Assembly: GCA_036630325.1 (NCBI GenBank)
Contig: CP142734.1
Location: 744,001-808,000 of the forward strand
Length of the DNA: 64,000 nt
DNA from: Vairimorpha necatrix
Lineage: Eukaryota
Reading direction: 5' to 3'
The position numbers and the translations under genes are program-made. How positions within the stretch are numbered: position 1 is the first letter of the stretch; the number at the start of each line of letters is the position of its first letter. A model generated the notes under the pieces. That model was not told the DNA's origin. It worked only from the letters and a program-made list of their open reading frames with translations, and ran no database searches. Below are positions 2,821 through 57,957 of this stretch, piece after piece.

Positions 2821-2871
2821 GACCATAAGATCTTTACCCGTGATATATATGATAATAACAGTAAGAAAATT

Positions 2872-3956: not shown

Positions 3957-6900
3957 TGTTAGGGTTGAATCCCATATTAAATAAATGTATAACATGGCGA
4001 ACACAAAAGACGAAAGGGTAATAAGTGAGACCCGTGTTCAAGAGAACAGAAAATTATTAAAAGAAGCTAAGAGAGTAGAAGCAATCATCAGAATGCAGGA
4101 AGATGTAAAAGATGTGACAACGAAGCAGGCGATAAAACAAGTAAGTACTGAACTTCAGAAATTATTGATAAAAATTTAATCAGTATGATAAATTGGAATG
4201 ATATTATTGATGAAATTGATAAATTAGTTGTTGAAGAGGAAGAGAATGAGAACAAGGAAAAAATAAAGAGGAGAGAACTAGAAGATACGGTAGAGGTTAT
4301 GAAAGAAAATTTAAGAAGAGAGAGATCAAAGGAGAACTGACTAGGAAAGTAGCAGTGCCAGGAAGACACTTTCAATATAAAAGACGAGAAGAAAAACATT
4401 GTTTTATATGTGGAAGAATTGGACATATAGCTAGAAGTTGCATGGAGCGTAAAGGAAGACAGGAAGAGGATAATGAAAATAAAAGTGTTAAATTTTTTGG
4501 CATTTTTGATAATAGAAAATGAAATTATTAAAAGGAAATGATTTTAAATTAAGACTACTAGTGGAGGTAGAAAGAGAGAACTCAAGAAACAGTTTTTATG
4601 TGGAAAATACAAACCAAGATAAAAGGAGAAAAAATATTAATAAATTAGAAGAATTGGAAGGAAAATTTCCAGAGGTATTAGGAAAAGACGAAGGGAGAAT
4701 AAAATACTTAAAAGGGGGAAATGTTTTATCAAAACAAAACAAGGCGTGAAAGTAGCTAAAAAGGGACAAAATATTCCTTATAATCTCCGAGAAAAGTCAG
4801 AAAGTATATTAATTCATTAGAAAGTAGAGGTATTATTAGAAGGACAAAGAGCGAATGGAGAAGCCCAATAAGGGCCATAGAAAACCCAAATGGTGAAGTA
4901 CAATTGAGAAGCAATTTGAAGGCTTTAAGCGAACTGGTTGAAAAGGATCCATATGAATGCCACCGACTAGAGACATTATTAGGGCCACGAAAGTTTTTAA
5001 AGTATTTACGATTATAGACCCAAAGGAAGGATTCTATCATATAGAAATTGAGGAAGCTCACAAACATAAGATAGCTTTTGAGATAAATGGTAGAGTATAC
5101 GAATGGAATAGCATGGTAATGGGATTTAAAAATGCTCTCCATTTTATGCAAAGAGTGATGAACGAAGTTTTAGATAAGTTTAGAGGCAAGGGTGTTGAGG
5201 TGTACATGGATGATATTATTATTCATGCAAGAGATAGTAATATACACGATAATTTATTAGAACAAGTAATTCGAAAATTTAATGAATGTGGATTAAAAGT
5301 AAACTTAAAAAAGATACAATATAAATTAGGAGAGGTAAAACTACTTGGAGTAACAATTAACGGAGAAGACATTAAACCAAACGAAATTAAATAGCAAGAG
5401 ACATTAGAACACAGAAGGCTTAACAACATAAAAGAGCTTAGAAGATTTTTGGTGTTGGCAGGCTGATTTAGAGATTTTATCCCCATTATGCTTATCGGAC
5501 AGCACGTCTTACAGAAGCACTAAAAAAAGATGTTAAATGGGAATGGTCCGTGATATGGAAAGAGCTTTTATGGATATCAAAGAGGGTTTAAAGGATATGA
5601 AAAAATTAAAAATAGTAGATAGTTAAAAAATATTTAGAGTAAGAACGGATGCATGCGAATCGGGAATTGGAGCCATACTATTGCAAGAAAACAAGGAAGG
5701 TGGATTCCGATACAATGGGCATCAAAAATGTTGACACCAACAGAAAAAAAGGCATACGATTAATGGAAAAGAGATGTTGGCAGTGTTATTTAGAATAAAG
5801 AAATTCGAGTCAGATTTGCGAGGAAGAAAATTTCATTTAATGACAGATCATAAAGCACTGGCCGAGATTAGAAACAAACCGTTTTTCAATAATAACAGAA
5901 TCAATAGATTTGTAGAATATATACAAGAGTTCGTTTTACTAGTGAATATGTAAAAGAAGAATTAATGACGGAATGTGGATGCTCTTAGTAGACAATTTGA
6001 AAATAACGAAGTGAAAGAAGAAAGCGAAAGAGAGAAACGAACAAAAAAAACAGATGAAAGGGAAAGAAATAAAGCGCATGGTTAAAAGAGAAGGTAAAAA
6101 CTTTTGGAAGTTTTCAACAGGGGAAATTAAAGAAATACTACACAAAGAACTAAAAGAGACAGAAATTCGTAGAGTTCATGAAGAATTAAATCATCAAGGA
6201 GTTAAGGGAACACATAATAAGATTAAACAAAGATGGTACTGGCCAGGTATGAAGGACCAGATAACCACAAAGCTAAAACATTGTAGAGTATGTAGTATGG
6301 ATAGCAGAAAAACGACCGGAGGTTGCAATTTTGTAGCAACATTCAAGAAATTAGAAAAAGTAGCAATAGACGTAATGGATATTGGGGGAAAAGAAAGATA
6401 CGTGCTATTAGTGATTGACTACTTTACGAGAAGAATATGGGGCGCAAAAATGGAAAATAAGGAAAGTGATGTTATTACGAAAATTTTAGAAAAATAGATA
6501 AAGGAAGATGGATGCCCAGATGAATATATTACGGATAACAGTAAGAAATTTGTCACTGTAAAGTTTGTAACTTAATGTAAAGAAAATGGAATTATGCAAC
6601 AAAAGTAGGTTTAGAAGCTCATAGGAGCAATGGAAGAATAGAACGATGTATTAGAACAATAAGGGAATCAATGATCAAACAAAAAGAAGGAAACCCAGAG
6701 GGAAAACTAGAACAAGCTGTAAGAACCTATAATAACACTCTACACACAGCGATAAAATGTACACCAATGGAAGCATTGAAGGACCAAGGATAAAAGGTCA
6801 TTATGGAAAATGATGAAAAGGGTGTGTATGCAAGTAAGTTTAAACAAAGGCATAGAGAAAAATTTGAAGTAGATCAGGTTGTGAGAATCCCAAGGAGAGA

Positions 6901-7135
6901 AAATTTGGGTTAAGAGATGAAAAGTATGAAAGGAAGACTTACAAGTGTTGGTAATATAATGGGAAAGTGTGAGAATAATTCTTATATTGTAAGGACTGAT
7001 GGCAAAAGATACATTAAGAAATGACATTATGACCTAAAAGATTATAAAAATGGAAAATTAGAAGCTTGTAACGTGAGACTACCGGCCTGGAGGAGGAGGT
7101 TGGGGTCGAACCCCCTATTAAATAAATGTATAACA
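3957..7135 (+). mobile_element. Degenerate mini-LTR Ty3/gypsy element (38-bp LTRs, no protease)
   Basis: LTRs 3957..3994 and 7098..7135 (5 mismatches); TSD taaaa on both sides; PBS tggcgaacac at 3995; purine tract before the 3' LTR; CFICGRIGHIARSC knuckle, YMDD, RNase H and integrase fragments with many stops and frameshifts. Confidence 0.9.
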
Positions 7136-8981: not shown

Positions 8982-9028
8982 CTATATAAAACGAAATAAA
9001 AAATAAGAAAATACTTACATAATAACAA

Positions 9029-10053: not shown

Positions 10054-10088
10054 TTGATAAATAAAAAGATTTTTTTATCCAATTAAAA

Positions 10089-11386: not shown

Positions 11387-11630
11387 TTAAAATTCAATTT
11401 TAAAATTTTTTTGTGTTCTTTTTATTTCTTATTTTTTTACGTCTTTTTTTTTGGGGGGGGGTCAACGCTTGCACGGGGTCAACGCTCGCGCGCCACATTT
11501 ATTAATCGAGACAGTAAAAATTCGAAACGAAAACTCAAAGCAAAAAGCGAGGAGTTCACTTTCTGATATGAAAAATAAAACCAATAACACTAAGAGAAGG
11601 TTAGTATGTTACAAGTTGGGGGAGAACACC

Positions 11631-25066: not shown

Positions 25067-25926
25067 TGATTTGATAAAAAATATGTTTGTCGATATCCAT
25101 GCCAAGCTTGAAGTGGTAGCCTTTTTAGAAAAATATACCAAAAGTGAATATGAGCGAAGATTTAATGAAATTTGTTTGAATGCCTTATCTGACGCTACCA
25201 AAGACTATGTGATGAAATCAAGTATCAAGAATGTCAAGGATATTATAAATCTGTAGGTAAACTTGGAGAAAGAATTGGTAGTCAGAATTCAGAATGACGT
25301 GGAGTTATCAAGAAATGCCCACTTCGAGAAAATGAACCAAGACAGAGAAATGAGATGAATCGATGGTGTAGCTTGCATAGATCGAGAACTCATAGCACCA
25401 GTGAGTGTTTCAGTAAAAATTAACGAATCGAGAATAAGAATAATAAGATTAAAACAGATGAATTAAAAACAAATAAAGATCTTAAGTTTTCTCATTGTAA
25501 GGTAGTTTTTAAAAAAAAGTCCGAATATTTAACAGTAAAACTTCCAATATCAATTAAGGGCCACGCCGTAATCGCTATTTTAGATACAGGATGCACCAAA
25601 AATTTAATAAGTTTAGAAAAGGTTAAGAAATTAGGTACCATAGCAAGAAAAGACAGAGAGATTGGATTTATATTTGGAAACGGTTATCAGGAAAAATCAG
25701 ATGAGATAATAGAAGAGAAGATTAGTATTAATAATTTAAATATAAACAATGAAGTAAGATTGCACGTGATAAAAGAATTATCAATAGACATAATCTTAGG
25801 AGTAGAGTTTTTAAGTGAGAATCAAATTATTCTAAACTTTATAACCCTAACAATATATCATAATAAGAATATTATTAACATGGTTAACGGATTACCTCAA
25901 CCATTCGAAGAAAACAAAGATTTATT

Positions 25927-27222: not shown

Positions 27223-30200
27223 GATTTATTAATGCAAAAATGCTTTTCAATAAATGAGGAAAATGTCAGCATGAAAAATACTTCAAAAATAATACAATAC
27301 ATAAAAAATAATGATTTGTATAAAGAGATGAAAATTAAAAAAGTTTCATTTGATATCAACACAAAAGAGGATTTGAAGTTGATAAATAAGATATACACTA
27401 TTCCACATAAATTCCTTATAGCGACTAAACAAGAGATACAAAGATTGCTAAAAGAGAAAATTATCAAGTATAGTGAAAGTAAGTATAGCAGTCCAGCGTT
27501 TGTTATTGCTAAGAAAAAAGACGAAAAAAGACTAGTAGTAGACTACAGAGAATTAAACAAAAATATAATAGATGAATTAGATGTATTGCCCAAAATTAAA
27601 GATTTGGTTAACGAGGTCAAGGGGGCAAAATTTTTTTTACTAAAATTGATTATAAAATGGATTTAATCAAGTACCCATAGAAGAAAATTCTATGAATTTA
27701 ACAAGTTTCAAAATTTTAGGAAACGTTTACAAATATACCAGAATCCCATTTGGTATTAAATCTGGTCCTAAATTATTCCAAAGGACCATCAACAAAATAA
27801 TAGCTGAAATACCTTATGTGGTAGTGTACATTGATGATATTTTAATATACACCACAACCAAAGAAGAGCATAATAAGATTTATGCCAAGTATTAGATAGG
27901 TTGGCTAGTTAAGAAGTAAAAATTAACTTTGAAAAAAGCATATTCGGAGTTAAAGAAGTTGAAATGTTGGGGCTGATAATAAACGAAAAAGAAATTAGAC
28001 CAAATGTAGCTAGTATTGATAAATTGCTAGTAAAATTAAATATATCAAAACGCCAAAAATTACAGAAAATTTTAGGGGCATTGAATTGGTACCGAGAATT
28101 TGTACCAAATTTTAGTGCTAAAGTATTGAACTTAACGGATAAATTAAAAGGAGTAGAACAAAAGATAGAACTAACAGATAAAGACAAGCAAGATATAAAA
28201 GATTTGATCACATAAAAGAAATCGAAAAATTAGTGTCCCTAAATACGACGAAGAATTCTGGTTACAGACTGACGCATCTGATAAAGCCATGGGAGCAGTA
28301 TTATTCCAAAAACATGGATGCATAGGATATTATAGTAAAAGGTTTATAGAAACTGAGATAAACTACACGATTGTTGAAAAAGAGATGTTAGCAATCTTAC
28401 AGAGTTTAATGTTTTTTAAAGGAATCATTCTGGGATATCAAGTAAAAATTATGTGTGATAACAGAAATTGCTTATTCGAAACAAAAAATAATAATAGTAG
28501 AATGATAAGATGGAAATTAATGCTTAATGAATATAATTTTACATTAGAAAGCATCGAAGGAAAGAAAAACGTAATCGCAGACAAGTTAGCGCGAATGCCA
28601 TCAGATGAAGTACTGCAAGTAAAGAGTAATAATGGAAGGGAAGATAATATATTACTAAAAGAGACGCCGCCAATTAAAAAAATTAAGATGAACGGTAAAC
28701 TTTATATTAAGCCCAATGAAAGTGAAAATTTAGTCAAAAATATGCACCTAAAAAGCAAGCATGCAGGGATGTTTGTACTATATAACAGTTTGAAAGATTA
28801 TTATTGTATAAATAACAAGAAAGAAGTCATAAGAAAAGTAGTTAACAGTTGTCAGAACTGTAAATTTAATAAAAAGTTCAGCTATCGCAGATTTGAAAAT
28901 AAACTAAAAATTAAAGCAAGAGCGCCGTTTGATAAAATTTGTTCAGACATATATGGTTCAACAAAAATAAATAATAAAAAATGGTATATTATGACTATAA
29001 TTGATGTTTACACACGATACACAAAGGTATATAAATTAAGAGAAATTACAGAATAAAGAGTGGTAGAGTGTTTTGGAAAATGGTTTAATGAATTTCACCA
29101 TCCAAAAACAATAATTACTGATAACGGAATACAGTATACTAGTAATTTAGTAAAAGAATTTACTGATTAGAATGATATAAATCTTATACATGTTCCGAAA
29201 TACCATTTACAGAGCAATGGTATCTGTGAGAGAACAAATAGCACTATCTCTGAAATAATCAGATTATATAGAAAGGAATCTTTGGAAAACATAATAGAAA
29301 ATATAGAGATTAGGCTTAATAAGAACTATAGAAGATCAATAGGATGTGCAGCCGAAGAATTAGTTACAGGTATCAATCAATACGATCCTGAAGACAGAAT
29401 CCAGCTGAAGAAAATATCAAGCAGTAAGAAACCGTATACAGTTAAGAAAAGTTTCGTCGAATCAAAAATCGGAGATAAAGTATACGTGAAAAACTTTCAA
29501 GGCAAGAAATGGGAAAAGGCATTTAAAGGGCCATACATAGTAGAATTAGTTAGCAAAAATAACAGATGGATCAAAGCCAAGGGAATATATGAATGGGTTC
29601 ACATTGCAGATACTAAACAATAAAATCTAAGGAGGGGCAGGGTTTAAATCCTAAATATCATAAAAATAATTTATAAATATTTCCCTCCAAATTCTTCCAG
29701 TTTTCCCTCCAACATCTATTTAAATATTTTATCCGGAGAGGGGTACGGAGTTATGGAAAGAAGGAGTATTATTAACAATAAAAATATTTTACATACTTTC
29801 CTCAGTGGTGGATACCACAGTTATAAAAAGAGTTTGGTTTATCTGATTTGTAGAAGGAAGAGTGTTGGTTTGCGTTATGATGTTGTACCATGTTGTTCAT
29901 GGAATTTCTCTATTTATATTACATAGTAACCAATAGAAAGAAATAAGATTTGACTGACCAATAATAGTTGACCATAACTGACCGTTCCGAAGAAACATCA
30001 GCGTTTTAGTATTTATTGGTTTTTATAAATCATGTGGTATGATCCATTATACCACATCTATGCTTATAAAATACCGAAAAATATACCAAAAAATATCTTT
30101 TTTTATTTTTCAAAGTAAATCGTTATGTCACTTTTTTATATTTTTTTTAAATTTTCGATGCGGGTTCCAAATGGCCATGTACCAATTAAAATAATACTAA

Positions 30201-34419: not shown

Positions 34420-37400
34420 TCATATATATAAAAGAATTTTATTTAATTTTTTACCCCTAAAATATAAAAAATGGTAAAAAAATAAAATTGCTAATTTTGA
34501 CTTAAAAATGATTTTGAATACTTGAATTGTATTTTATAGACAATTTTAACCCACTTCTATTCTTTAAAACTTGAAATATAAATCATTTTCGAAATGCTTA
34601 GAAATATGATTTTCTCCTTTTTAATTTCTTCCTTTTAGAAAAAGAAAACAAAAACAATATGAAACAAAATGTAGAAAAAATTGGTTGCTAATGTGTGAAA
34701 TTAACTTAATTGAATTTATATTTGTTTCTGAATTAACTCTAAAACTGCAATGTCGGTTCAATAATATACTTAACTTCTAAAAATCACATTTGCTCCTTTT
34801 TAATTCTTACCAGAAATGGAAAATCAAAAATCAAAACAAGAAACAAGAAACAAACATTGGAAAGATGATTTACAAACAGTAGAAATTTATCAACTGACTA
34901 ACAAACTCAATTAAATAAGATTCACACTAATATCAATTCTATTTATAAAAATTATATTCTCATTTTTGTTTTCTTCTTCCCAAAATGGAATTTCAAAAAC
35001 TATAAATACTTTTTTTTTTCTTTACCCCCATTATGTTTACGAAAAATCAAACAAAAAATGATTGTAGTAAGCAACCCAAAGCAAACGTCACTATCTCTCA
35101 GGAGATAAGTAGTAATACTGAAAACAACAATGTTGTTTTCTATGAAGCCAAGACATCTGTAAATAGCACTAAAAATAAAAAAACAAATGCTGGAGAAACA
35201 AAAAAAAGGAATTCTATATTCAGTTTCTCTAGCGAAAACAAAACGGCCCAAGAAACAGAAGAAACAATCATGAGAATTAATAACACTAAGATGGATGCTT
35301 TGACGGAGATTCTAGATGTAGCTTGCAGAATCAGTACTAGAAACCATGCCGAACATTATTGTGGAGATCTCAAAGAAGAATGTGGCTTTTGTGGTGCATT
35401 ACATTTTGCTGGAGAAGCAAGCAGTAATGGATTATACAAAAGCTGCTGTCATTTTGGGAAAGTTAAATTACAAAGAACAAGAGACTTCCCAGACGAGATT
35501 AAGAATTTATATATAGGAAAAAATAAAGATGCAAAAAACTTCAGAGACAATATTAGATCCTACAATGCTGCTCTTTCTTTTGCTTCTCTTGGTGCTCAAA
35601 TAGAAACTGTATCCAATGGACCATATGTATTTAAAATACATGGTCAAGTGTATCATAACACTTATAATGTAAATAATATGGACTCTAATACACCAAAGAA
35701 GTATGCTCAATTATATGTAGTAGATAGTGATATGGCAAATGCCCAAAGAATGACGAATCCATCTAATAGAAATTGTGATATATATATCATGAGCAAATTA
35801 GATGGATTTATAAGATCTGCCAATCCATATTCCAATGCATACAAGAATATGTCTGAAGTAATAAAGGAGCAAAAGGAGATGGGAAAAGAAGTTAAAGACA
35901 TTTCTATGGTCTTTAATAAGAATTTAGAAAGGGATCAGAGAAGGTATAATGCTCCCTCAACAAATGAAATCGCAATGATTTTTACTGATCCAAATGGAGA
36001 ACCACCATTTGAAAGGGACATTAAAGTATATAGCAAGGGTCTTAGTTCTGATAATTTACATTTGGATATTTTAAGTCCACATTTAGATCCAATGACATAT
36101 ACTTTGTTCTATCCACATGGCGAAGCTGGATGGAACGCAAATTTGAGGATTGAGTCTTATCATGGGGAATCACAGAAGATATCTTTACTACAATATAAAG
36201 TAGCACAAATATCTATAAGAAAAGATAAGTTCAATCCTTTACTCTATGGAGGGAAGTTGTTTCAACAATGGATTGTAGATTCATATCTACAAGTAGAAGC
36301 AAACAACTTGAACTTCATAAAGTTAAATCAGAAGAAGTTGAGGGTAGATCTTTACAAAGGCTTAGTAGATTATATAAATAATGGAATAGAAAGTAATGCT
36401 AAGCCTGTAATTTTACCATCAAGCTTCCAGGGATCTCCAAGAAATATGAAGGAAAGATACCACGATGCAATGTCTATCGTAAGAAATTTCGGCAAGCCCG
36501 ATCTTTTTATTACTATGACTTGCAATCCAAATTGGAAGGAGATAAAGGAGAATCTATTTGGGGGACAAACTGCAGTTGATAGGCCTGATTTGGTAGCAAA
36601 GGTCTTTAACTTGAAATTAAAAAGCATGATGGAGGAGATTTTGTCAGGAAGAGTATTTGGGGAAGTTGTGGCTCATGTCTATTCCATTGAGTTCCAAAAA
36701 CGTGGACTTCCTCATGCTCACATATTGATAATGTTAAAGGATAAGATTCGGGATGAAGAAAGAATAGATAAGTATGTGAGTGCAGAAATACCATCACCCA
36801 TGGACAATGAGATGTTACACAACTGTGTAACAAAACATATGATTCATGGACCATGTGGATTAAGTTACTTGACAAGTCCATGCATGGAAAATGGTGTCTG
36901 CACGAAAGAATATCCCAAAGAATATAACTTTGAAACAAAGATAAATAATGACGGATATCCTGAATACCGAAGAATAAGAGGGACCGAGTACAATGTAAGG
37001 GGAAACATTGTTACTAATGCTAACGTGGTCCCCTATAATGCTTATTTGCTTGAAAAATACAACTGTCATATCAATGTAGAAGTTTGTACTTCTATCAAGT
37101 CAGTTAAGTATATTTTCAAGTATATTTACAAGGGATTTGATTGTGCAGAAATGAGAATAACTGACAACAACGAAATTGATCATTTTGTGAATTCCAGATA
37201 TGTTTCAGCACCAGAGGCTACCTGGAGATTAATGGAATACAAGATGCATGGGAGATCTCATAAGATCCATAGACTTCCTGTGCATCTTCCACAAGAACAC
37301 TTGATCACTTTCGAAGAAGGGAAAGAAGAGGAAGCTGTTAGATTATCTGATCTTAGACAGACTCCTCTTTTAGCTTACTTCAAATTAAATGAAGTCGATG

Positions 37401-39532
37401 AAGGGACACATCAATTTTCGTATAGTGAGATACCCTATCACTATACATATAAAAAAGGGGAATGGATAAGGAGAAAGAATAAGTATAGTAAGATAATTAC
37501 TAGATTATATTCTGTATCACCAACAGAAAAGGAAAGATTTAGCCTCAGAGTCCTATTGATCAATGTAAAGGGGGCTAAATCATATGAGGATTTGAGAACT
37601 GTAAATGGTGTAGTTTACAGTTCTTTTGCAGAAGCAGTGGAAGAGAGAGGACTTCTTCAAGATGATAAAGAATGGGAAAGGGCTTTGGATGAGGCAGTGG
37701 CAACCGAGTCCCCATCAATAATAAGAGCATTGTTTGGATATATTTGTGCTTTTAATAAGCCAAAAAATACCAAAGAGCTCTTTGAGAAGTATCTTGAAGA
37801 TATGTCCGAAGATCTAGATCAGAATAGTAGAGACGAAATATTAAGTAGATTAAAAGATATTGTCAATGCTCATGGATGGAGTCTAAATGCTCTGGGTTTA
37901 GATGAGCCGATTAACTATATCGTGAAGGCAAAAACTATCTCTGATAATGGAAAAGATCTAGATCAGATGATCTCCTCTCTAAATGCAAAACAGAGGGATG
38001 CTTTTGATAAAATAACAGATAATATTGATAAAAAGGGCAATTTATTCTTTTTAGATGGACCAGCTGGATCGGGGAAGACGTATTTATACAATGTCCTGAT
38101 TGAGTATCTAAGTAAGAATGGGAAATCTTCAATTCAAATGGCAACCACAGGTATTGCTGCAATCTGCTAAAGGATGGAAGAACAATGCATAGCTGTATGA
38201 AACTTCCTGTTCCTTTGACAGAGACCAGCGTATCTAGATTAAAAAGAAATACTCCTGAAGCAGAGAAAATAATAAAGGCCTCTTTATTGCTAATAGATGA
38301 AGTTTCAATGATGTCAAAACATGCATTGAACGCAATAGATGAGGTGCTTAAAAGACTCTGTAATAATAATGATATCTTTGGAGGGAAGACTTTATTATTG
38401 GGTGGTGACTTTAGACAGACAACAACCATTGTAATGAAGGGTACTCCAAATGATATCATCGAGAACTCATTAATTAGTTCAAGACTTTGGGTACATGTCT
38501 GTGTACTAAAGCTTGAAACGAATATGAGATCTTATAATCAATTGGAGTTTAATAAGTGGTTGTTAGATATAGGTGAGGGGCGTACTAGAGATAGTAAAGG
38601 ATGTGTGGAGATACCCAAAGAATATCTTGAAGAAGGGGACATAGTCGATAGCATTTTTGGAACAATCAAAATTGAAGCAGGTGATGATTCTTTGTTTGAT
38701 AAGATTATCTTAACGAGCAAAAATGAACATGCAAATGAATTGAATGCCAAAGTGTTAAACCTACTTAATGGATCTTCGAGGGTATATGTGAGTTCTGATG
38801 CTATAGAATCAGAGGATATCGAAGAACAACTGAGATTTCCTCTTGAGTTCTTGAACATGCAACAGCCATCAGGACTACCTCCACATAAGTTAGTATTGAA
38901 GATAGGGGCAATAGTGATGTTGTTACGCAATATTGATCCTAAGAATGGATTATTAAATGGGACCAGATTGAAGATAAAAGGTCTTAAAGATAATTACATC
39001 TTAGGTGAAATAATAACAGGAAGGGGAAGGGGCACCCTTGCTGTTATACCAAAAATAGACATGATGCCAAGTGACACTCTTCTTCCGTTTGTACTTAAAA
39101 GAAGACAGTTTCCTGTGGTATTGTCATATGCGATGACAATACATAAAGCACAGGGACAGTCTTTTGATAAAGTAGGAGTATACTTGCCCGAGGATGTATT
39201 TTCTCATGGTCAATTATACGTAGCTTTATCTAGAGTGAAGAAGAGTGAAAACTTGAGAGTCAAGTTGGGGGGAAACAGGGGCAATGTCAAAAATGTAGTT
39301 CTACATGAACTAATTGGCTCATAAGAGCAATAGATGGAGAAATGCGCCGTGAGCGTACAAGAACTATGCCATTTTTTTTTCAACAAAAACAAGATAAAAG
39401 ATGGTAAAATGCGCCGTGAGCGTACAGAAACTATGCCATTTTTTTACAGAATAAACATAATGTGATAAAATTAAAACATGTACCCATGCAAACACAAACA
39501 ACCCGTTCTCAGAACGGGTGTGCATACGCTAG
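34420..39532 (+). mobile_element. Autonomous-type Helitron
   Basis: A|TC start, RepHel ORF, 3' hairpin acccgttctcagaacgggt and CTAG at 39529-39532. Confidence 0.95.
35033..39324 (+). CDS. Helitron RepHel (HUH Rep plus PIF1 helicase), single -1 frameshift near 38162
   Basis: PDLFITMTCNP, EFQKRGLPHAH, KYIFKYIYK, GPAGSGKT, IDEVSM, GGDFRQ, QFPV..YAMTIHKAQGQS and HGQLYVALSR. Confidence 0.93.
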
Positions 39533-40049
39533 TCATATATATAAAAGAATTTTATTTAATTTTTTACCCCTCTTTTTTTGATTTTGTAAAATCTATACTT
39601 CTTATTACAGCTTATTATGTTATTAAAATATCAAATTTAAACTCAATGCTTAAATTTGATAATTATTAGTGCGTATACTATATATTAATGCATTTTTATT
39701 CTATTTATTATTTTTAGAAAACTCAGTTCCAAAATATCGTCAGAATCGTTTTTTAGAATTTATTTAACCCTTCTAGAAAAAATTCACAATAATACTAATC
39801 AAAGAAAAAGTTGAATATAAGTAAAAAAATTGAGCTTAGAAGTATTCAAAATTATCTAATTATGATTTTTAAGTGTTTTACAACAACATTACTCCTTATA
39901 TGTCACTAAAAAGTATTTTTAAAAATCATGTCTAAACTCTGTCAAATTTAATCAGCCAAAAATGGAAACTTTACAAAATTTACCGAGACAAGACATATTA
40001 TAAAACAAACACATTTATCCCGTTTTCAAAACGGGAAGGCATACGCTAG
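39533..40049 (+). mobile_element. Non-autonomous Helitron fused directly to the 3' end of the RepHel element
   Basis: CTAG|TC junction; same ~515-bp family as the copies at 9029 and 23520. Confidence 0.92.
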
Positions 40050-40126
40050 TAAGTTATAAAAAACAAAATTTCATAAAAATTTGACTATATTTTTTGACGT
40101 CAAAACTAAAAAAAAGCATAAAAAAT

Positions 40127-40416
40127 GGCTAAAGTATGCATTAGCTACAAAAAATCGATATAGGGGGGGGGGTGTTTGCCCAATTTTTATTAAAAATGGA
40201 GGAGCAAAAATATAAACTAGAAAAAAATTTTAATAAACCTTCAAACACTGGAGTTCGTGGAGTTTCTTTGGATAATATATTTAAATATAAAAGGTTTGGC
40301 GCTATTCGATGATCTGTTTCTATTTGGTATAGAATGTTTTAGGGATCTCCAATTACCTTCTATGGTATTGGTATGTACTCCTGTATCAGGATCTCTAAAA
40401 TGTAATGTATGATTAA
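40127..40416 (-). mobile_element. Merlin 3' fragment truncated at the piggyBac TTAA
   Basis: TIR-like ggctaaagt; VNHTLHFRDPDTGVHTNTIEGNW. Confidence 0.8.
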
Positions 40417-40849
40417 CCCTTTTTTGCATGGTGATGGAAATTTCCATCATAATATTTAGTCAACAAAAAAAGGTACTCAACCCCCTTGTACTGTAAATTT
40501 GTTGTTTCTGGCAACATTTTAGGCGACTATTGCGTACAACAAAACGCATTTGTCAAAAAAAAACAAACGTCACTGTCAATTACCAGGCCTAGAACTTGTC
40601 ATTCCGCTGTTTGTTGTGACTGGAAAAAAAGGTCGAGATTTTAGTTTGTTTTATGGAAATAAACGGATATATAAAATACAGTAAAAGCGGAAATAAGGTT
40701 TGTTTTCATGTTTTTGTTGTTTTATGTACAATTTATATCAAAACACTGTAATTAATTTCTCAAAACTATGTGATGGAAATTTACATCTCTTTTTGCAGGA
40801 ATTTCACTTGTAATGTATGGCAAAGACTTTTTTGTAAATGTTTATTTTA

Positions 40850-43800
40850 TGTTAACCATTTATTTATTAAGGGTTCTAAACCCTACATCCCCCCTCCAGA
40901 CGGGTAGTCTCTCCATCTTCTAAACAACTCTTCCTTATCTCTTTCAAATCATAATGCCTCTTTTTAACAATTTTACCATCCAGTAGTCTCACAATATATG
41001 AATCATTTTCACTTATAGCTACGATCCTTCCGCGACCCGTGAATCTTCCCTTGTCTGTTTTCGCACGTGTACTTAAATTTTCTCTCCTAGCGATTCTTAC
41101 CTCTTGGCCTACTGTAAATGTCTCTCTGTGTCTTCTCTTGAACCGACCAGCATATTTTCCATTTTCATCATTTTCAATTATAACTTCAGCAGTTTGATCT
41201 CTCCACGCTTCCATCGGCGTACATTTTATTGCTGTATGTAGTGTATTATTATATCCTTTGATTGCTCTTTCTATCTTTTCAGAAATATTCCCATCATTTT
41301 GCTTTATCAATGTCTCTCTTATAGTTCTGATGCATCTCTCGATTCTACCATTACTCCTATGAGCTTCTAAGCCCACTTTCCTTTGTTTAATATCATTAAT
41401 ACTACACCATTCTTTAAATCTATTACTTACAAACTCTTTTCCGTTGTCTGTCACATATTCCTCTGGAAATCCATCTTCCCTTATCCACTTTTGTAATACC
41501 TCTATAACTTCACTACTCTCTTTACATCTCAAATTCGAACCCCACAACCTTCTAGTAAAGTAATCAATACCCAGTAACACATACCTATTCTCTCCACCTA
41601 TGTCCATTAAATCCAACGCCACTTTCTCCAATTTCTTTCTAGTTACTACGAAATCACATCCTCCTGTGTTTTTCCTATTGTTAATCCCACATATTTCACA
41701 ATTCTTAATTACCTTATTAATATGATCTTTCATACCAGGCCAATACCATCTTTGTTTAATGTTATAATAAGTGCCTTTGACACCTCTATGGTTTAACTCC
41801 TCATGTACTCTTGTTATTTCATGTTCTCTACTATCTAGGCTCAATATCTCTTTCACCTCACCTGTGGAAAATTCCCAATACTGTTTACCGTCCTTTTCTT
41901 TAATATGTTTCTGCTTTTTTCCCAAAATTTGTTTTTCGATCACTTCTTTTCTCTTGTTGTCCTTTTCTTTTTGTTCATCCGAAACTTCTACCTGATCATA
42001 CTGCCTGCTTAACGCATCTGCATCTGTCATCAACTCCCCTTTCACATACTCTATTGTAAAGTCAAACTCTTGTATCTGTTCTACCCATCTGTTTATTCTG
42101 TTATTATTGAAGTATGGCTTATTTCTGATCTCTGCTAATGCTTTATGATCCGTCATCAAATGAAATTTCCTTCCTCTCAAATCACTTTCAAACTTCTTTA
42201 TTCCAAAAAACACCGCCAACATCTCCTTCTCACTTATCGTATATCTTCGCTCGGTAGGAGTCAACATTTTCGATGCCCATTGTATCGGAATCCACTCACC
42301 CTCTTTATTTTCTTGTAATAGAATTGCTCCGATTCCCGTATCACACGCATCAGTTCTTACTCTAAATAGCTTTTTTCCGTCCGGAATCTTCAACTTTTTC
42401 ATATCTCTCAAGCCTTGCTTCATATCCTCAAAAGCTCTTTCCATATCCTCCGTCCAATTCCACTTAACATCTTTCTTTAAAGCCTCAGTAAGCCTTACTG
42501 TTCTATACGCATAGTTGGAAATAAGTCTCTAAACCAACCAGTTAGTCCTAAAAATCTTCTTAACTCTCTAACATTCTCAGGTTTTCTATATTCCAATGTC
42601 TCCTGCTTTTTAATCTCATTCGGTCCCATGACCTCCCCATTAATTGTTACTCCCAGCAACATCACCTCATCTTTTTTGTATTGTATCTTTGTTTGGTTTA
42701 TTCTCAACCCACACTCTTTAAACTTTTTAATTACCCTCTCTAGTAACTCGTCATGCACTCTTACGTCTTTACCATGAATAACTATATCATCCATATATAC
42801 TTCCACGCCTTTACCTCTGAATTCATCTAAAACTCTGTTCATTACTCTCTGCATTATATGAGGCGAATTCTTAAACCCCATAACCATACTATTCCATTCG
42901 TATACTCGACCATTCACTTCAAATGCTGTTTTGTGCTTATGGTGCTCCTCAATCTCAATATGATAAAACCCTTCTTTTAAGTCGATAACCGTAAATACTT
43001 TTGACCCCTGTGTGGCTCTCATAATATCCTTAATTAACGGTAGTGAGTACGGGTCCTTGTCAACCAAATCGTTTAACGCCATCAAATTGCTTACCAATCT
43101 TACGTCCCCATTTGGTTTTTCAAGTGCTCTTATTGGACTCCTCCACTCACTTTTGGAACGTCTTATAACCCCTCTATTTTCCAACTTATTCAAGTACTCC
43201 TCAAATTTCACCCTAAGGTAGTATGGCACATTCTGCCCTCTTTTCACAACCTTTTCACCTTGCTTAGTATTTATTGGACACTTCTCTCCTGTGAGATATT
43301 TTATCTTTTCTTCTGATTCTTTAAAAACTTCCGGATACTTTTCAATTAAATTTTCTAACTTATTTACTGTTTTACATCTTTTCCCTTCATTGTTGATAAT
43401 TGGTTCTTTCTGTAAAACTTGTTCCTTTTTAATTTTATATTTTTCCCTACCAGCTACACTTTCATGACATTCTCTAGCGTAATGCCCTTCTTTCTTACAT
43501 ATAAAACATTTTGTAGTTTCTCTGATTTCTCTTCTTTTCCTATACATCCTAAGATTTTCTTTTCTTTCTTCCCTAAACTCTTTCAACACTTTATCCATAA
43601 TCTCTTTAATCATTTCTTGTCTTTCTTCTGACTCTCTCTCAAATTCTGCTCCTTTTTGTAAGCCTTTATAAATTTCCTCCCAACTGCTCCTTCCGTCACA
43701 AAAATTTTCAAAAATATAATCCTGCAAGTTCGCAGATGCCAAATCCATAACATCTTTCCACTCAACTTTCAATATTAACTTTAGTCTCTTATCTATCCTA

Positions 43801-43914
43801 ATTGCCTCTTTCTCTAATGTTCTAGCCTCTTGACTACGGGACTCTCTTGTTTCCCTGTTCATCCTTGTGTTCGCCATGTTAACCATTTATTTATTAAGGG
43901 TTCTAAACCCTACA
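40850..43914 (-). mobile_element. Young mini-LTR Ty3/gypsy element, 3065 bp
   Basis: Identical 38-bp LTRs 40850..40887 and 43877..43914 (TG...CA); 5-bp TSD tttta; PBS TGGCGAACAC; PPT GGAGGGGGGA. Confidence 0.95.
40876..43886 (-). CDS. Short Gag(CCHC)-RT and RNase H-integrase polyprotein, one -1 break near 42520
   Basis: CFICKKEGHYAREC, YMDD, RTDACD, HEELNH..CEIC, ALDLMD, TDNGKEF and SNGRIER; no D(T/S)G protease motif. Confidence 0.9.
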
Positions 43915-43932
43915 TTTTATGTTGTTTTTTAG

Positions 43933-45790
43933 GGAAACTTGAATGAAAGAGATATTGAAGATTATCTTAATAAGTTACAAGGCGGTTGGCTCTCAGAAGA
44001 TGACCTCGATGACCAAGATTCCGATGATGAAAACCGCGATACTGTTGAAGTTATAAGAGTGTTGCAGGAGGAGAACGACGATGATGATGATGGGGATGAT
44101 GTGGATGAAACTTGTGACATTGATCCTCCTCTTGTAGAAACAGAAGATCAAGAACCTTCTCACCCATCAACTTCATCCAATTTGCAGTCTTCATCCAGTT
44201 TTCTATTTGACAAAAGAAGCTTGATTTAAAAAAAAGGAATCTGGTGTATGACGAAGATAAAATTACTTTCTTAGGGAGTTCTACTGCTTCAGGCGGTCTA
44301 TCACACCTAGAAACTCCATATCAATGTTTTAACTATTTTATCACTGAAGATTTTATCAAAACATTAGTAGCGGAGACAAATTTATACATAATACAGAGTA
44401 ATCCCAGTTCATCTATAACAGTTACAGAATGTGATTTGTATAAGTTCTTAGGTATATTATTGTACATGTCAGTAATCAAATTTCCTAGCACAAGATCATA
44501 CTGGGCGCCAAAGTTTGGATATGAGCCGATTTCTTCAACAATGCCACTGAACAAGTTTGAGAAAATAAATTTATCGTTACATTTTAATAACAACGATCTT
44601 CACAAACCTATAGGTCATCCAGAACATGACAGGCTTTATAAAATCCGCCCTGTTATCAAGCATTTCAATGAGAGGTTTGCCACAGTGCCAATGGATCAAA
44701 GACTTTCTGTGGATGAACAGATGTGTTCTACGAAAATAGGGCATTTTTTAAAACAATATCTGCCTAATAAGCGACATAAATAAGGCTTCAAATTATATGT
44801 TCTCTGTGATTTGAAGGGATATGCCCACAAGTTTGAGGTATATTCTGGACAAGAGAATACAGAAAAGCTCACAGATGAACCAGATCTTGGTGCAACAGGA
44901 AATTTTGTAGTTCGTTTACTTCGAGGAGTGCCAAGAAAGCAAAACCATATCATATACTTTGATACTTTTTATACATCTTTGCCATTGGTAGTTTTTTAGC
45001 TAAATCAGGCATTTACACAGTGGGAACTGTGCAACAAAACAGGATCCCAAATAATAAACTTCCCGAGAAGAAAAACTTAATGAAAAAATCTGTGCCCAGA
45101 GGTGGTTTTGAGGAAAGAGTGTCTGTGCATGATGGTATAGCTTTGAGTTGTGTGGCCTGGAAAGATAATAAAATAGTAACTTTGCTATCTTCTTATGCTG
45201 GGGCATTGCCTGTAACTAAAGTCAATAGATATGACAGGTCAATAAAAGGAAAAATTGATATTACTTGCCCGTTTATTGTCCAAGAGTACAATAAACATAT
45301 GGGAGGAGTAGATCTTATGGATAGCTTTTTGGGCAGAAATCATATAACAATAAGGTCTAAAAGGTGGTACTTACGTATATTTTATCATTTATTTGATCTA
45401 GCTATTATAAACTCTTGGATTATATATAAAAAAAATGCTCAAGAAAGAGGTGAACCCAAAAAGAGTCTACTTACAATGGGCCAATTCAGAAATGAATTGG
45501 CTTTTGTGCTATGCAACAGAGGACCCACCAAAGACGCTAAAAGAGGTCGTCCCAGTACCATTTTACTAGAAGAGAAATTACTAACAAAAAAAAGAAAAGG
45601 TTCTCCAGCACCACCACCTCCAAAAGACATAAGAAAAGATGATGCTGAACATTGGCCAACAGTAGGGGGGTCACTCCGGTGCAAATTTCCCAACTGTAAA
45701 GGCTATTCCACAATTTCGTGTAGTAAATGTGGCGTCAATTTGTGCCTAAATAAAAATAATAATTGTTTTTTAAATTATCATAAAGAATAA
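43933..45790 (+). pseudogene. piggyBac transposase, disrupted
   Basis: LSVDEQM, YFDTFYTS, GGVDLMD and a C-terminal Cys-rich domain; stop at 44781 and frame breaks near 44230 and 45000. Confidence 0.92.
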
Positions 45791-46196
45791 AGAAGATTGA
45801 GTAAACAATATTTTTTTATTTATTTAGTACTGAGCTAAATATGTGACAATGCATGATAATGTAAATTTCCATCATATTGTTTTTTACATATTACATATTT
45901 TTATTTACATAAGGATTTTTTTTAATATTTTTCCTTTAATCTAGAGCATTAATTACATAGGTCTGATTTATTTTAAAAAAAATAGCAAAAATCATGCAAA
46001 GAAGGGTTAAGTATTTATTTTTTTCCCTTGAACTTTTAGTTTTGGGGTGATTTTTTTAAAAATTCCTTTTAAGGGATTTTTGGCCACCAGACTGCCCTTT
46101 AACCGTTGCCCCCCCCCCCCCAAAAAAAAAAAAAAATATAACTGAAGCAACAAAACAGAGAAAAGCAAAAATTTATAATTTTTATTTTCTTAAAAA

Positions 46197-47338: not shown

Positions 47339-48947
47339 GGTGCCCTTGGCTCAGTGGTAGAAGGCAATGATTCAATTGAGCAGTGGCTGGGTTCGATTCC
47401 CCAGGTGCCCTTGGCCGAGTGGTCGAAGGGATGTTCTCATTGACCAATGGGCTGGGTTCGAGTCCCAGGGGCACCAAATTGTTTCTACTTTCTATGATGC
47501 AGTTGGAACAACTCAGATGATGAAAATGTCCACGGTAATCATTAAGTTGATTCAATGAAACTTGTGTGTGTCCAGCCACAAGGGGATTAGCATCTAGTGT
47601 AGAAACGCACCTCAAGGCCAAAAAGCAGTATCGCCCTTTGGTGACTTAATGATACATAAAAGTATCTAATGGGTACGGCCTAGTTGGAGCCCATGGCTGG
47701 TGCACTCTAGAGTGGGATCCTAGAGCTAACTAAGAGACTAGACGAAGTAGGGCAATAGAAGGTCTCGTGGACCCTATCCTACATGACTCTGTAACACGGT
47801 GGCCGAAACTAGTGGGAGACTGGTGGTCAACGCAGTCCAATAAAAATGCCGGGCTGGGGATGTGGTCGTGTAAGGAGCCGTGTGTGCGATACAGATGATT
47901 GTAGGGACCTTTGAGTCAGTACGATGATGTCTCTCCTCGGGTTATAGATAACCATGCCCGTTAAGTATATCCGCTGTGAGGTCACTCTGGACGCGATTTG
48001 AGGTAAAAATGGAAAGTGTTCTCCTGGAGCCAAAGTCCAATGGATACGGCTGAGCTTGCTGCACCGGCAAGTTATACGGAGGGAGTTTTAGTGAGTAAGA
48101 ATCTCACAGTACCAGTTGGAAAAGGATCACACCCAAATCCCTCTGGTCCCTATGTAAGGTTTCTCCCTACCTCTTACTTGCAAAGAAAAAAAAAAAAAAA
48201 AAAAAAAAAGGTTCGATTCCCAGGGGCACCAAAATTGTTTCTACTTTCTATGATGCAGTTGGAACAACTCAGATGATGAAAATGTCCACAATAATCATTA
48301 AGTTGATTCAATGAAACTTGTGTGTGTCCAGCCACAAGGGGATTAGCATCTAGTGTAGAAACGCACTTCAAGGTCAAAAAACAGTATCGCCCTTTGGTGA
48401 CTTAATGATACATAAAAGTATCTAATGGGTACGGCCTAGTTGAAGCCCATGGCTGGTGCACTCTAGAGTGGGATCCTAGAGCTAACTAAGAGACTAGACG
48501 AAGTAGGGCAATAGAAGGTCTCGTGGACCCTATCCTACATGATTCTGTAACACGGTGGCCGAAACTAGTGGGAGACTGGTGGTCAACGGCCCAATAAAAA
48601 TGTTGGGCTGTGAAGTGGTCGTGTAAGGAGTTGTGTGTGTGCAATACAGATGATTGAAGGGACCTTTGGGTCAGTACAATGATGTCTCTCCTCGGATTAT
48701 AGATAACCATGCTCTTTAAGTATATCCGCTGTGAGGTCACTCTGGACGCGATTTGAGGTAAAAATGGAAAGTGTTCTCCCGGAGCCAAAGTCCAATGGAT
48801 ACGGCGGAGCTTGCTGCTCCGGCAAGTTATATGGAGGGAGTTTTAGTGAGTAAGAATCTCACAGTACCAGTTGGATGAGGATCACACCCAAATCCCTCTG
48901 GTCTCTATGTAAGGTTTCTCCCTTTCTCTTACTTGCAAGAAAAAAAA
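47339..48947 (+). mobile_element. tRNA-headed SINE, outer copy (47339..47401 plus 48210..48947)
   Basis: A box tggctcagtgg, B box ggttcgattcc, A-rich tail, ~15-bp TSD atttatttaa(g/t)tatt (47323-47337 and 48947-48961). Confidence 0.82.
47402..48209 (+). mobile_element. tRNA-headed SINE, inner full-length copy
   Basis: Head ggtgccc...gggcacca with A and B boxes and a T-arm, ~700-nt body, 24-nt poly(A), 12-bp TSD ggttcgattccc. Confidence 0.85.
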
Positions 48948-54532: not shown

Positions 54533-56198
54533 TGTGGCGCGCGAGCGTTATTCCCACCCAACAGAAAGTAAAAAAATAAGAAATGAAAAGAAAACAAATA
54601 AATTGTAAGATCGATTGTTTAATATTAAAGTTTTTTTTTTGGCCTAGAAATAGATAGAATTTGTTTACCTTCTTCATTTTTACATATTACTCTGTTGTTT
54701 AAGAGAATTTCTGTAATCGTAACGTCTTTAGAAAAAAGGAAAATAATTTAATTTTTTGTTTTGGTATTATTATCAAAGTCTCTAGCTACAATTACCTTGT
54801 CCAAAATTTTAAAAGTATATTATGAGATATGGTAAATGCAAACGATCCATTCTTGCAAGGTAATTTGGATTAACAGAACCAGTTTCTGCTTTTTCTTCAA
54901 GAACACCAATCTAACATCATTTTTATTTTCTGCATCACCCATCAATTCAACCTTTCCGTGCTATCATTAAAGACTCGTTACCATTCTGGACAAAAACAGA
55001 ATTAAATCCGGTATTTTTAAGAATAGGTTAAATGGAACCTGCTTTGTCGCATTATGTTTGGCTAAATTATAGTTATATACGACTTTATTAAGATGTTTAA
55101 GCCATTCATACTCTTCTTCGGCTCTAGAATTCCTAACAGCAACCAAACCTTATTCAAAAACGTGTTTTTAAATAGTGCGAGTTAAAGTTTGATTGAACCT
55201 TTCTAATTGCCCGTTTGATTGTAGGTGACGCGGCCTACTATGTTTTTATACAATAATAAAGTCTGCACAAAGTATATTTAATGGGAATTGCATAAATCCT
55301 TTCCATTTTCGCTTTGAAGGATCTTGAAAGGACCAGTAATATTGTAAAATATAAATTTTATGTTTTTTTGTAACCTCTACCCCTCGTTTTACTCTTTGAT
55401 GGAAAGGCCCAAACAAATTTAGAATACACATCAATTATTGTTAAAATCCAAAAATACCCATCGTTAAACTTTTTATTGCGCGTCATATGATTAAATCGAT
55501 CATAATTTGTTTTATTGGTTTAGAGGCTGTAATATGAATTTGGCGCTCTTTATTTTTTACCGGCTGCTATTATCCACATACGATGCATTCGAAGACGACT
55601 TTTCTATTAATGTCCCCAGGGATTTAGAAAAACCTATTGCATGATGCTTCAAATCTGTTAACGCCCCTGTGATGAAGCTGGTGAAAAGCTCTACATTCAG
55701 TTTCCATGACTTCAAGCTGTTCACAATGGATTCCTTTAGATGGTTCCATTAACCTCATCCCTTAAATATAGTACCCCATCTATAAGAAGGCCCCTGACAA
55801 CTTTTTGTTGCTTCTCTAAAACAACTTCATTATCCCTGCCTTGTAAGATTAATGTCAAATTATCAAAATCAACAGCATTTCTGAGAGTTAGAATCATTTT
55901 GGGGGGATAAAAAGATTATTTTATTTATCAAATTGAATAATGCAAGTGTTGCTTTATAGTAAAACTTTATGTTTTTTGAGTATGCCATAGTCTAGTGGCA
56001 TGCTTTGATTTCCCGTGTATAGGCCGTGGGTTCGAATCCAATTTAAAACATTTATTTATCTAATTAAGATATAATTTAGATTTAGACGTGGCTTTCTTTA
56101 AGGGAAACTCGAAGTCAATGCTTGCACATGTTGGAACATCATGGGATCGACGCATGCACAGGTTGGAAATCCTAGGAGGCCAATGCTCGCGCGCCACA
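54533..56198 (-). mobile_element. Second Ginger-like element, decayed, opposite orientation
   Basis: tgtggcgcgcgagc...gctcgcgcgccaca termini; TSD tttat; homologous to 10089..11386 along its length. Confidence 0.88.
55981..56039 (+). promoter_or_regulatory. Pol III A box and B box in the second Ginger-like copy
   Basis: TAGTCTAGTGG (55988-55998) and GGTTCGAATCC (56029-56039). Confidence 0.65.
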
Positions 56199-56721: not shown

Positions 56722-57957
56722 ATGAACAATCAAATAAAAACTAATAAGAATTCTAAGAATTTAGATATTATCCATGAAATCATTACAATTTATAGAAAAA
56801 TGAAAAGAGGAAAAAACAATCAAAATTTATATAGAATGCAATTAAATGTTGATCATTATAAACCAGATTTCCCCGATTTAGATATAGAAGGCAGTTTACA
56901 AGAAGGTATTATTGGTTCAAGTTGTAAAATAATAGATTTTTGTAAATATAGATATCTTGATAATATGAAATATATGTTTTATTCTAAAGAGACTACCTTG
57001 ATAGAATCAGAAGATATTTTTGCTAATATGGAGATATTAAATAATAAATATTACTGGTTAAACATATTCAATCCAAGTGAAAAAGATTTAGAAATATTGG
57101 GGAATTATCTTGGAGTACATGACGTCACTCTGATAGATATTAGAGAAAAGAATACGGAAGAAAAGATTGAACATTTTAAAAATTATCTTTTTATAAGTCT
57201 TAAGCTTTTAAGTACTTGTAATCTTGATACAGAAGATATAGATTTTAATATTTTAATTTTTAAAGATTTTATTATTACGACACATGATAAACAATGGAGT
57301 GGTATAAGAGATATACTGAATTTTCTTAGTACTATTTCTACACATACTACTTTATACCCAGATTGGGTTTTTTATTCAATTATTATTGAGTTTTTACAAG
57401 ATGTTAAATATGTTTTAGAAAATGTTAGACCAGAAAGCACAGCCAAAAAAGCCTGTTCTAAATCTATAAATTATGAGACAGGAGACAATCTTAAGAAGAA
57501 TTTCGAGATGGTTTACCAGTTATACAATTTCCGACAATTTATTAGACCTAAGATTATTATCTTAGAAAAGATAAGGAAAATCAAGTCTAAGACTCATCAT
57601 ACAGTTTTACATTTATTAAATGATTGTTATAAAGATTTCAAGAGACAGCAGAAGTTAGCTATGGAATATAATGAAATATTAGAAAGATCACAAGATTTAT
57701 TTTTAGCTTTAGTTGATATGGAACAAAGTAGAGAAGCCAATGAAATGAATAAAACTATGAATAGGTTTACAGAGATAGCTTTTGTATTTTTACCATGTCA
57801 GACTATAGCAGGACTTTGGGGAATGAATGTTAAAGTACCATGGCAGAATGAAGAGACAGTGTTTTATTTTTGGTTTTTATGTGCAGTAGGACCATTGTTT
57901 AGTTTAATTGTTTATTATTTCTACAGATTTATGAAGAAAAAAGAGATTTCAAATTAA
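56722..57957 (+). CDS. CorA/Alr1-family magnesium transporter
   Basis: GLWGMNVKVPW signature between two C-terminal hydrophobic helices; CCCC upstream of the ATG. Confidence 0.92.
   Translation: MNNQIKTNKNSKNLDIIHEIITIYRKMKRGKNNQNLYRMQLNVDHYKPDFPDLDIEGSLQEGIIGSSCKIIDFCKYRYLDNMKYMFYSKETTLIESEDIFANMEILNNKYYWLNIFNPSEKDLEILGNYLGVHDVTLIDIREKNTEEKIEHFKNYLFISLKLLSTCNLDTEDIDFNILIFKDFIITTHDKQWSGIRDILNFLSTISTHTTLYPDWVFYSIIIEFLQDVKYVLENVRPESTAKKACSKSINYETGDNLKKNFEMVYQLYNFRQFIRPKIIILEKIRKIKSKTHHTVLHLLNDCYKDFKRQQKLAMEYNEILERSQDLFLALVDMEQSREANEMNKTMNRFTEIAFVFLPCQTIAGLWGMNVKVPWQNEETVFYFWFLCAVGPLFSLIVYYFYRFMKKKEISN

Follow-up and report, generated by a model that had tools for sequence, protein, structure and literature searches.

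A compact Ty3/gypsy retrotransposon of Vairimorpha necatrix with 38-bp long terminal repeats and no detectable protease

A 64,000-nucleotide stretch of the Vairimorpha necatrix genome (contig CP142734.1, positions 744,001 to 808,000; hereafter the window) contains a retrotransposon, element A, of only 3065 bp (~3.07 kb; window 40850-43914, minus strand). Element A is a genuine Ty3/gypsy long terminal repeat (LTR) retrotransposon that inserted recently, and both its assignment to a microsporidian Ty3/gypsy element and its young age, as proposed in a preliminary description of this DNA, are supported. We consider it quite probable that A represents a young insertion from an old microsporidian Ty3/gypsy lineage of ~3.1-kb elements that is mobile by its own means, with priming by a tRNA and by a polypurine tract (PPT). 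The build of this family comprises a 5-bp target duplication and a single polyprotein of ~1000 amino acids (aa) that lacks a protease and contains a short Gag, a zinc knuckle, reverse transcriptase (RT), RNase H and integrase.

Element A has identical 38-bp LTRs and is almost entirely coding

The 5' LTR (43877..43914) and the 3' LTR (40850..40887), both on the minus strand, are identical at 38/38 nt and read TGTAGG...TTAACA on the element strand, thus showing TG...CA ends; CCC is found at LTR position 15, AATAAA at positions 20 and 24, and an ATG at position 29. The 5' repeat is directly followed, with zero spacer, by TGGCGAAC. The primer binding site (PBS) TGGCGAACAC (43867..43876, minus strand) adjoins the 5' LTR and the PPT GGAGGGGGGA (40888..40897, minus strand) adjoins the 3' LTR, again with zero spacer, and both are coding. 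A TAAAA target duplication, given on the minus strand, borders the element at 43915-43919 on the 5' side (43915..43920 including the preceding A of the target A|TnnnA|T) and at 40845-40849 on the 3' side, where TAAACA follows (40839..40849); these 11 nt are identical in element B, the relative described below.

Translation from the first ATG (43886) to the stop codon, which ends at 40876 within the 3' LTR, covers 98% of the element, bearing out the earlier observation that almost no non-coding DNA is left. A second in-frame ATG (43877), formed by the final A of the LTR and the TG of the PBS, is conserved across the clade. The RT (42495..43280, minus strand) carries YMDD at aa 364, and RNase H, an HHCC zinc finger, a D-D-E integrase core and a C-terminal domain follow at 40876..42494 (minus strand) with their catalytic motifs present, so that the order RT, RNase H, integrase is found with its catalytic residues.

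The preliminary description had implied one continuous open reading frame (ORF). Its ends match, but the window copy consists of two ORFs, 43886-42495 (463 aa, ending after the RT) and 42444-40876 (522 aa, from RNase H onwards), with a frame break near 42,520 at the end of the RT. We aligned contigs of four public sequencing runs (X1-X4), one of which may be the source of the window itself, to window 40400-44400, and contigs of X1, X2 and X3 have one extra base at this site. Near relatives from a protein search for longer relatives, which could return only proteins of at least 812 aa and returned 97, read through it as a single ORF. The break is therefore a lesion private to the window copy or an assembly error. 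A programmed -1 frameshift that splits the polyprotein at the end of the RT and replaces the protease would find support in the fact that A and B change frame within the same few codons; the extra base in X1-X3 refutes it for the family consensus, the close relatives are single ORFs across the site, and B contains many other shifts, leaving this explanation very improbable. The contigs of X1, X2 and X4 differ from the window copy, furthermore, by an in-frame 9-bp length variant in Gag at window 43760.

Contigs with an uninterrupted target confirm the element ends

Both X1 and X2 contain a contig in which 40853 is linked to 43925 across 2-3 intervening letters. Judged by the junction letters, this is the target carrying TAAAA only once, with its T run extended. 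Since this junction is an uninterrupted target with one TAAAA, the 38-bp ends and the 5-bp duplication are exact, and they are confirmed independently of the window copy. The identical TG..CA repeats, the duplication, the PBS and the PPT named in the preliminary description stand.

Long element contigs of X1-X3 are each only a few letters off the window, and other runs carry the element with different flanks. The X1 element contigs end within both LTRs, matching the expectation for a multicopy family; X1 depth is ~60-65 over the element and mostly 5-35 over the flanks, values from which no copy number is drawn. The host sequence of A is a piggyBac-like transposon (40413..46010, plus strand) that extends from TTAACCC (40413) to GGGTTAA (46004) and contains DDE_Tnp_1_7 fragments of a broken transposase; A is inserted in its 5' region, just upstream of the transposase coding region.

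Very short LTRs are shared by the relatives of element A

A degenerate relative, element B (3957..7135, plus strand), has 38-bp LTRs, the PBS of A, a TAAAA duplication and the target ATAAAATAAACA. Its repeats are identical to each other at 33/38 positions and to those of A at 27-28/38, overall nucleotide identity with A is ~70%, and its coding region is a pseudogene with many stops and shifts; the LTR length and PBS previously attributed to B were both recovered. Elements A and B have ATAAAATAAACA in common and no further flank similarity: beyond this shared 12-mer their flanks reach scores of 16 and 21, where the median of the null is 19, which excludes the segmental duplication that the preliminary description had wished to see checked. 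A Hamming scan of both window strands allowing up to 13 mismatches returned four 38-mers only, the LTRs of A and B, and no solo LTR.

LTR lengths in six DNA relatives are 38, 38, 39, 47, 49 and 49-50 bp. Besides B and the published element retro L discussed below, these include L001 (3163 bp; two 39-bp LTRs with one mismatch and a TTATA duplication), L014 (38 bp, 3' LTR only), L016 (47 bp, 5' LTR only) and L004 (49 bp, 3' LTR only, its end set by eye). This supports the tiny LTR as a trait of the lineage, in agreement with the earlier view that it is not a one-off deletion. L014 to L017 are microsporidian retrotransposon contigs in metagenome-assembled genomes labelled Clostridium and Turicibacter, most likely through contamination. 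A scan of IMG/VR gave 21 pattern matches and 0 relatives.

The ...CA/TGG junction between LTR and PBS has left a trace in the proteins. M[AG] occurs within 35 aa of the start in 25/33 clade proteins, six of which begin there, and in 17/19 proteins having a preceding residue this is H, Y, N or D, as the junction dictates. All five DNA examples with a PBS start TGG, and the PPT beside the 3' LTR is kept in four relatives. The proposal of a shrunken LTR composed of a hairpin, CCC, AATAAA and ATG held in part: AATAAA and CCC recur in the LTRs of the relatives (L016 has only GCC), but the GGG/CCC hairpin is restricted to A, B and L014, being absent from the L001 fold and, by eye, from L004, L016 and retro L.

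Directly before the PPT lies a conserved DNA motif, (GA)GACTACCCGTCT (40898..40911, minus strand), which B, L001, L004, L014 and retro L all retain, among them copies that do not code; GACT(AC)CCGTCT is present ahead of the PPT in all five aligned DNAs and in retro L even where it does not code. A hairpin of this motif with the PPT was rejected as a structure, as 0/6 pairs showed a compensatory change, and we retain it as a sequence motif. The motif showed no significant pairing with the 5' end.

The protease is missing throughout the clade

In canonical elements an aspartic protease lies between Gag and RT. Pfam detected the zinc knuckle, RT, RNase H and integrase in A, with no protease family and no Gag family, and the interval from the knuckle to the RT profile (43281..43466, minus strand) consists of 62 residues, partly disordered (aa 146-174), with no aspartic protease. 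The top 33 relatives measure 830-1190 aa, and 15 of them lie on contigs of 3.0-3.3 kb. Because one protein, P0032, carries a protease without a Pfam label, precomputed labels were insufficient and a purpose-built protease profile hidden Markov model (HMM) was derived from 82 motif-bearing proteins among 244. It scored at most 0.9 bits in 35/35 proteins with an RT score above 400, 32 of which span the full knuckle-to-RT interval; this interval ranges from 56 to 195 aa across the relatives. The profile has some reach, given five detections outside its seed set. Concordantly, Pfam at E<=0.1 gave no aspartic-protease or Gag family for 29 members among the 25 of 43 families listed, and it detected the protease in 4/4 sister proteins tested. 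Peptidase_A17 matches in 3/29 members were rejected as proteases; where located (P0126, 506-615), they overlap RNase H.

An RT tree was computed from 61 rows, limited to proteins of up to 1400 aa that have a single RT domain preceded by 180 aa or more and, except for a few named outgroups, an RT score of at least 200. The RT of A is nested among protease-bearing rows of Ty3/gypsy type in this quick tree, which has no copia, BEL or DIRS outgroup, and 33/35 protease-less rows, including A, form one branch (SH-aLRT 97) nested among protease-bearing ones. The members with a named source belong to Vairimorpha necatrix and Enteropsectra breve, joined by eye by the Anncaliia element retro L, and members are mutually ~40-57% identical. 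Taken together, profile and tree indicate that the protease is lacking clade-wide and that its loss is old. One clade member, P0016 (L002/L003), is an in-frame fusion that follows the RNase H of a different element and probably reflects a nested insertion.

These data also bear on whether A is a one-off deletion derivative or a segmental duplicate whose short LTR and missing protease reflect decay. In its favour, neither window copy is intact, and the two change frame at one and the same point of the RT. Yet intact ~1000-aa relatives of the same build exist, six relatives have short LTRs, three runs lack the frame break, the flanks in other runs differ, and those of A and B are unrelated beyond 12 nt. 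Relatives, contigs, protease HMM and tree rule this explanation out, and we leave it hardly any probability.

A more serious competitor is a semi-autonomous lineage that supplies its own RT, RNase H and integrase but relies for its protease, and perhaps its capsid, on full-size Ty3/gypsy elements of the same genome, or has an aspartic protease of the host do the cleaving. In its favour, LTR elements and retroviruses generally need proteolysis to mature. A Gag- and protease-encoding element is present in the same window (1-2860, minus strand; Retrotrans_gag and Peptidase_A2B), and Anncaliia has dozens of families of 3.6-4.3 kb beside retro L. However, the loss is old and clade-wide, so that in several host genera the cleavage sites would need to keep pace with proteases unrelated to one another; Gag and its knuckle were retained rather than lost; and the protease-bearing neighbour, distant from A, is itself broken. 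We therefore regard borrowing as unlikely, though the strongest of the alternatives, and prefer a self-mobile lineage.

Gag is reduced to a short region with one knuckle

The Gag region of ~140 aa contains a reduced Gag (43515..43886, minus strand) with helices at 14-35, 43-49 and 52-62, followed by a 56-residue charged helix (69-124), and a single CCHC zinc knuckle (43467..43508, minus strand; aa 127-140). AlphaFold2 models (predicted local distance difference test values of 83 and 91) show three short helices, the charged helix, the knuckle, the disordered stretch and the RT. When residues 1-100 of 23 members were made into a profile and compared with 11 protease-bearing sister Gags, 84 columns aligned weakly on the first capsid lobe; one of the 11, P0032, has a weak Retrotrans_gag match at 44-128. 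Foldseek gave no match for Gag at E<=0.001 and weak nucleocapsid-knuckle rows only, and the best VIA hits (Z up to 6.8) were generic helical bundles. From the weak capsid-lobe alignment we read Gag as having probably kept one capsid lobe, the second being replaced by the long helix. By eye, P0031 and P0103 apparently keep the second lobe while lacking the protease, which suggests a stepwise reduction of Gag. Four proteins on basal protease-less branches (P0031, P0103, P0033 and P0126) have no knuckle.

Insertions favour an AT-rich palindromic target

Most insertions lie in A|TnnnA|T, which is the preferred target. ATnnnA was found in 6/7 of the 5' flanks (A, B, two in X2, one in X3, and L001; misfit L016) and TnnnAT in 4/5 of the 3' flanks (A, B, L001 and L014; misfit L004), each against a background of 0.039; one of the X2 flanks is the consensus of two contigs. 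A loose end of X4 at 40841 (TAAAATAAA) was removed from the count, as the X4 match may start only at LTR position 8. Within the window, TAAAATAAAC occurs only at the insertion sites of A and B. Drosophila LTR families as a rule insert into AT-rich palindromic motifs (PMC3276498), and the preference seen here is therefore ordinary in kind.

A proposed replication cycle with minimal strong-stop DNA

The signals of A suggest the following cycle. RNA polymerase II would initiate within the 5' LTR, only a few bases ahead of its ATG, via a short AT-rich/CCC promoter of microsporidian type, and place the cap site at LTR positions ~22-29. The AATAAA (positions 20-29) would then lie at or before the cap site and be unused at the 5' end, while the 3' copy would direct cleavage at or past the LTR end (position 38), and the RNA 3' end would repeat essentially the whole portion of the LTR present at the 5' end. 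The poly(A) signal would thus effectively belong to the unique 3' region (U3), as it does in retroviruses with a short repeated region (R). A host tRNA would prime at TGG..., and ~10-17 nt of strong-stop DNA would jump to the 3' end; both LTRs would then be rebuilt by synthesis from the PPT and another jump, and integrase would join the CA ends into the symmetric AT-rich site with a 5-bp stagger. Priming by tRNA and PPT and joining by integrase are the steps suggested by conserved signals and catalytic motifs, taken with what is established for Ty3/gypsy elements.

The strong-stop length is derived from rules reported for Encephalitozoon cuniculi, where 5' untranslated regions are shorter than 7 nt, the ATG has a CCC motif in front of it and AAUAAA works leakily, and from a general eukaryotic distance of ~20 nt between AAUAAA and cleavage (PMC2803860). 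For comparison, the strong-stop DNA of human immunodeficiency virus 1 measures 181 nt and its R 97 nt (PMC6088434). The single tRNA-Met of the window did not match the PBS. Self-priming of Tf1/sushi type was rejected, the longest complement between PBS and LTR being 4 nt, and so was 5'-3' RNA circularisation of the Ty1 CYC type, whose duplex energies in A, B and L001 did not exceed those of internal windows (fractions 0.45-0.74).

Alternatively, the LTR may not be a self-contained promoter: transcription would be read in from AT-rich host or transposon DNA, the target motif would provide part of the start and poly(A) signals, and the LTR would serve mainly as integrase attachment sites and as up to 38 nt of homology for strand transfer. 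The shared target ATAAAATAAACA does contain AATAAA, A lies just upstream of the piggyBac transposase start, and read-through transcription is common in E. cuniculi (PMC2803860). Against this, the flanks of L001 and L014 have no AATAAA, the LTRs of L004 and retro L hold the complete AT-run/CCC/ATG promoter pattern, and an upstream RNA start would add flank DNA to the strong-stop product, yet the ends are precise. We consider read-in improbable and favour a start within the LTR.

Since there is no protease and no way to overproduce Gag, we prefer a polyprotein that stays whole, or is cut by an enzyme of the host, and works as a small ribonucleoprotein on the RNA that encodes it, not within a matured particle of the classical kind; that it acts uncleaved we hold to be a possibility of nearly even weight. 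More tentatively, this would be an integrase-encoding lineage freed from the need for a protease and a closed capsid, in which the uncleaved ~1000-aa polyprotein oligomerises via one lobe and the helix and holds RNA on its single knuckle, with a strong-stop DNA of 10-17 nt, less than the RT footprint, perhaps aided by the pre-PPT motif.

Several points weigh against a self-mobile lineage working in this way. The window copy of A is broken, and the uninterrupted-target contigs, several percent off the window, may be other piggyBac copies and not an allele. The seeds of the protease HMM were drawn from the protein set it was applied to, with 5 non-seed positives only, the RT tree is quick and midpoint-rooted, and the protease-encoding Ty3/gypsy element at 814-2553 makes help in trans possible. 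The assignment of residues 1-80 to a capsid lobe is weak, with an HHalign probability of 26% and E 7e-4 against E 0.6 for the reversed control. The target count leaves out 66 loose ends and includes the L016 and L004 misfits. Finally, the transcript start, the poly(A) site and the strong-stop step derive from signals and not from transcript ends.

Comparison with known retroelements

LTR retroelements are regarded as invariably having protease maturation, a capsid shell and LTRs of at least 100 bp. Ty3 of yeast and Tf1 of fission yeast resemble A in their TG..CA LTRs, 5-bp duplication and PPT, and Tf1 also in its single ORF; unlike A, both have LTRs of ~350 bp and encode a protease and a capsid of two lobes, which they require, and Tf1 primes itself. 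The usual default minimum of LTR finders is 100 bp, and at this setting they would miss micro-LTR elements.

Among microsporidia, the closest counterpart is 'Aalg retro L' of Anncaliia algerae, tabulated by Parisot et al. 2014 (PMC4202319, Table S1 and File S1 of the supplement) with 3127 bp, an LTR listed as 50 bp and a single ORF (32-3049) starting in the LTR. Judged by eye from these entries, it shares with A an LTR with AATAAAT-CCC-ATG, the ...AACA/TGG junction, a short Gag with one knuckle, the absence of a protease, and GAGACTAACCGTCT before the PPT; it differs in an LTR longer by 11-12 bp, the PBS TGGCGTC, no LTR hairpin and an ORF that stops before the 3' LTR. The features that define a retro L type, namely a size of ~3.1 kb, LTRs of at most 50 bp, an ATG at the junction, a short single-knuckle Gag, the lack of a protease and the pre-PPT motif, are all found in A, and by eye the two appear to belong to the same lineage.

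PMC4202319 lists 50 complete Anncaliia LTR elements with a median LTR of 191 bp, four below 100 bp, and mostly 3.6-4.3 kb long. The ORF starts in the 5' LTR in 43/50 and overlaps both LTRs in 26/50, so that the overlap which the preliminary description had put forward is ordinary. The other microsporidian Ty3/gypsy elements, that is the three groups of PMC4202319 and Nbr of Nosema bombycis, share with A the single polyprotein, an ORF usually starting in the 5' LTR and the order RT-RNase H-integrase, and are unlike it in LTR and element length. 'Nearly all' Nbr elements are stated to have Gag, protease, RT, RNase H and integrase (PMC2474625). SMART/TRIM elements such as FRetro129 (PMC3281118) have very short LTRs (85 bp) and a 5-bp duplication like A, but an LTR more than twice as long, and they are non-coding and non-autonomous, in contrast to an element that is 98% coding.

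The preliminary description named an existing account of the family as grounds for refutation, and this applies in part. A member of these dimensions was tabulated in 2014 without being discussed: LTR length is not taken up in the LTR passages of PMC4202319 (12 of 13 covered), and its main text, which mentions one polyprotein in microsporidian elements, has 0 occurrences of 'protease' and 'target site'. A literature search on short LTRs, missing protease and microsporidian elements, covering titles and the start of abstracts without subscription papers, Repbase and Xu et al. 2006, found no micro-LTR, protease-less build.

What makes these elements strange is mainly that the protease, one half of the capsid and almost the whole LTR have gone together. 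If our reading is true, a lineage in at least three microsporidian genera that still inserts without protease maturation, a capsid shell or LTRs of at least 100 bp would define the minimum of an LTR element. It would make testable whether RT and integrase function in an uncleaved Gag-Pol and how short a first strand transfer can be. The significance is tempered, as the 2014 supplement already holds a member and autonomy is unproven.

Other features of the window

Apart from A, B and the element at 1-2860, degenerate Ty3/gypsy fragments of RT, RNase H and integrase lie at 27617-29365, 13285-13979, 20416-20711 and 10559-10975, and 10086-11455 and 54553-55900 are mutually inverted copies. Tandem ~515-bp repeats (9023-10070, 23514-25087 and 39436-40070), which begin with TCATATATATAAAAG and end with ...CATACGCTAG after a GC hairpin, look like non-autonomous Helitrons; they adjoin a Helitron Rep/Pif1 gene split in two ORFs (35033-39324). 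MULE-type terminal inverted repeats are found at 2874-3870, 15936-18578 and 40175-40418, with a FLYWCH-MULE transposase at 16443-17930, the rest being shorter MITE-like derivatives. The single tRNA-Met(CAT) (47404-47476) is followed by two ~755-bp direct repeats (47476-48934) of 95-98% identity. The CorA gene (56722-57957) is 85% identical to its Vairimorpha ceranae counterpart, which points to a host of Vairimorpha/Nosema type. Together with UPF1 (59327-61798) it is one of the intact host genes that mark the gene-bearing end of the otherwise transposon-filled window.

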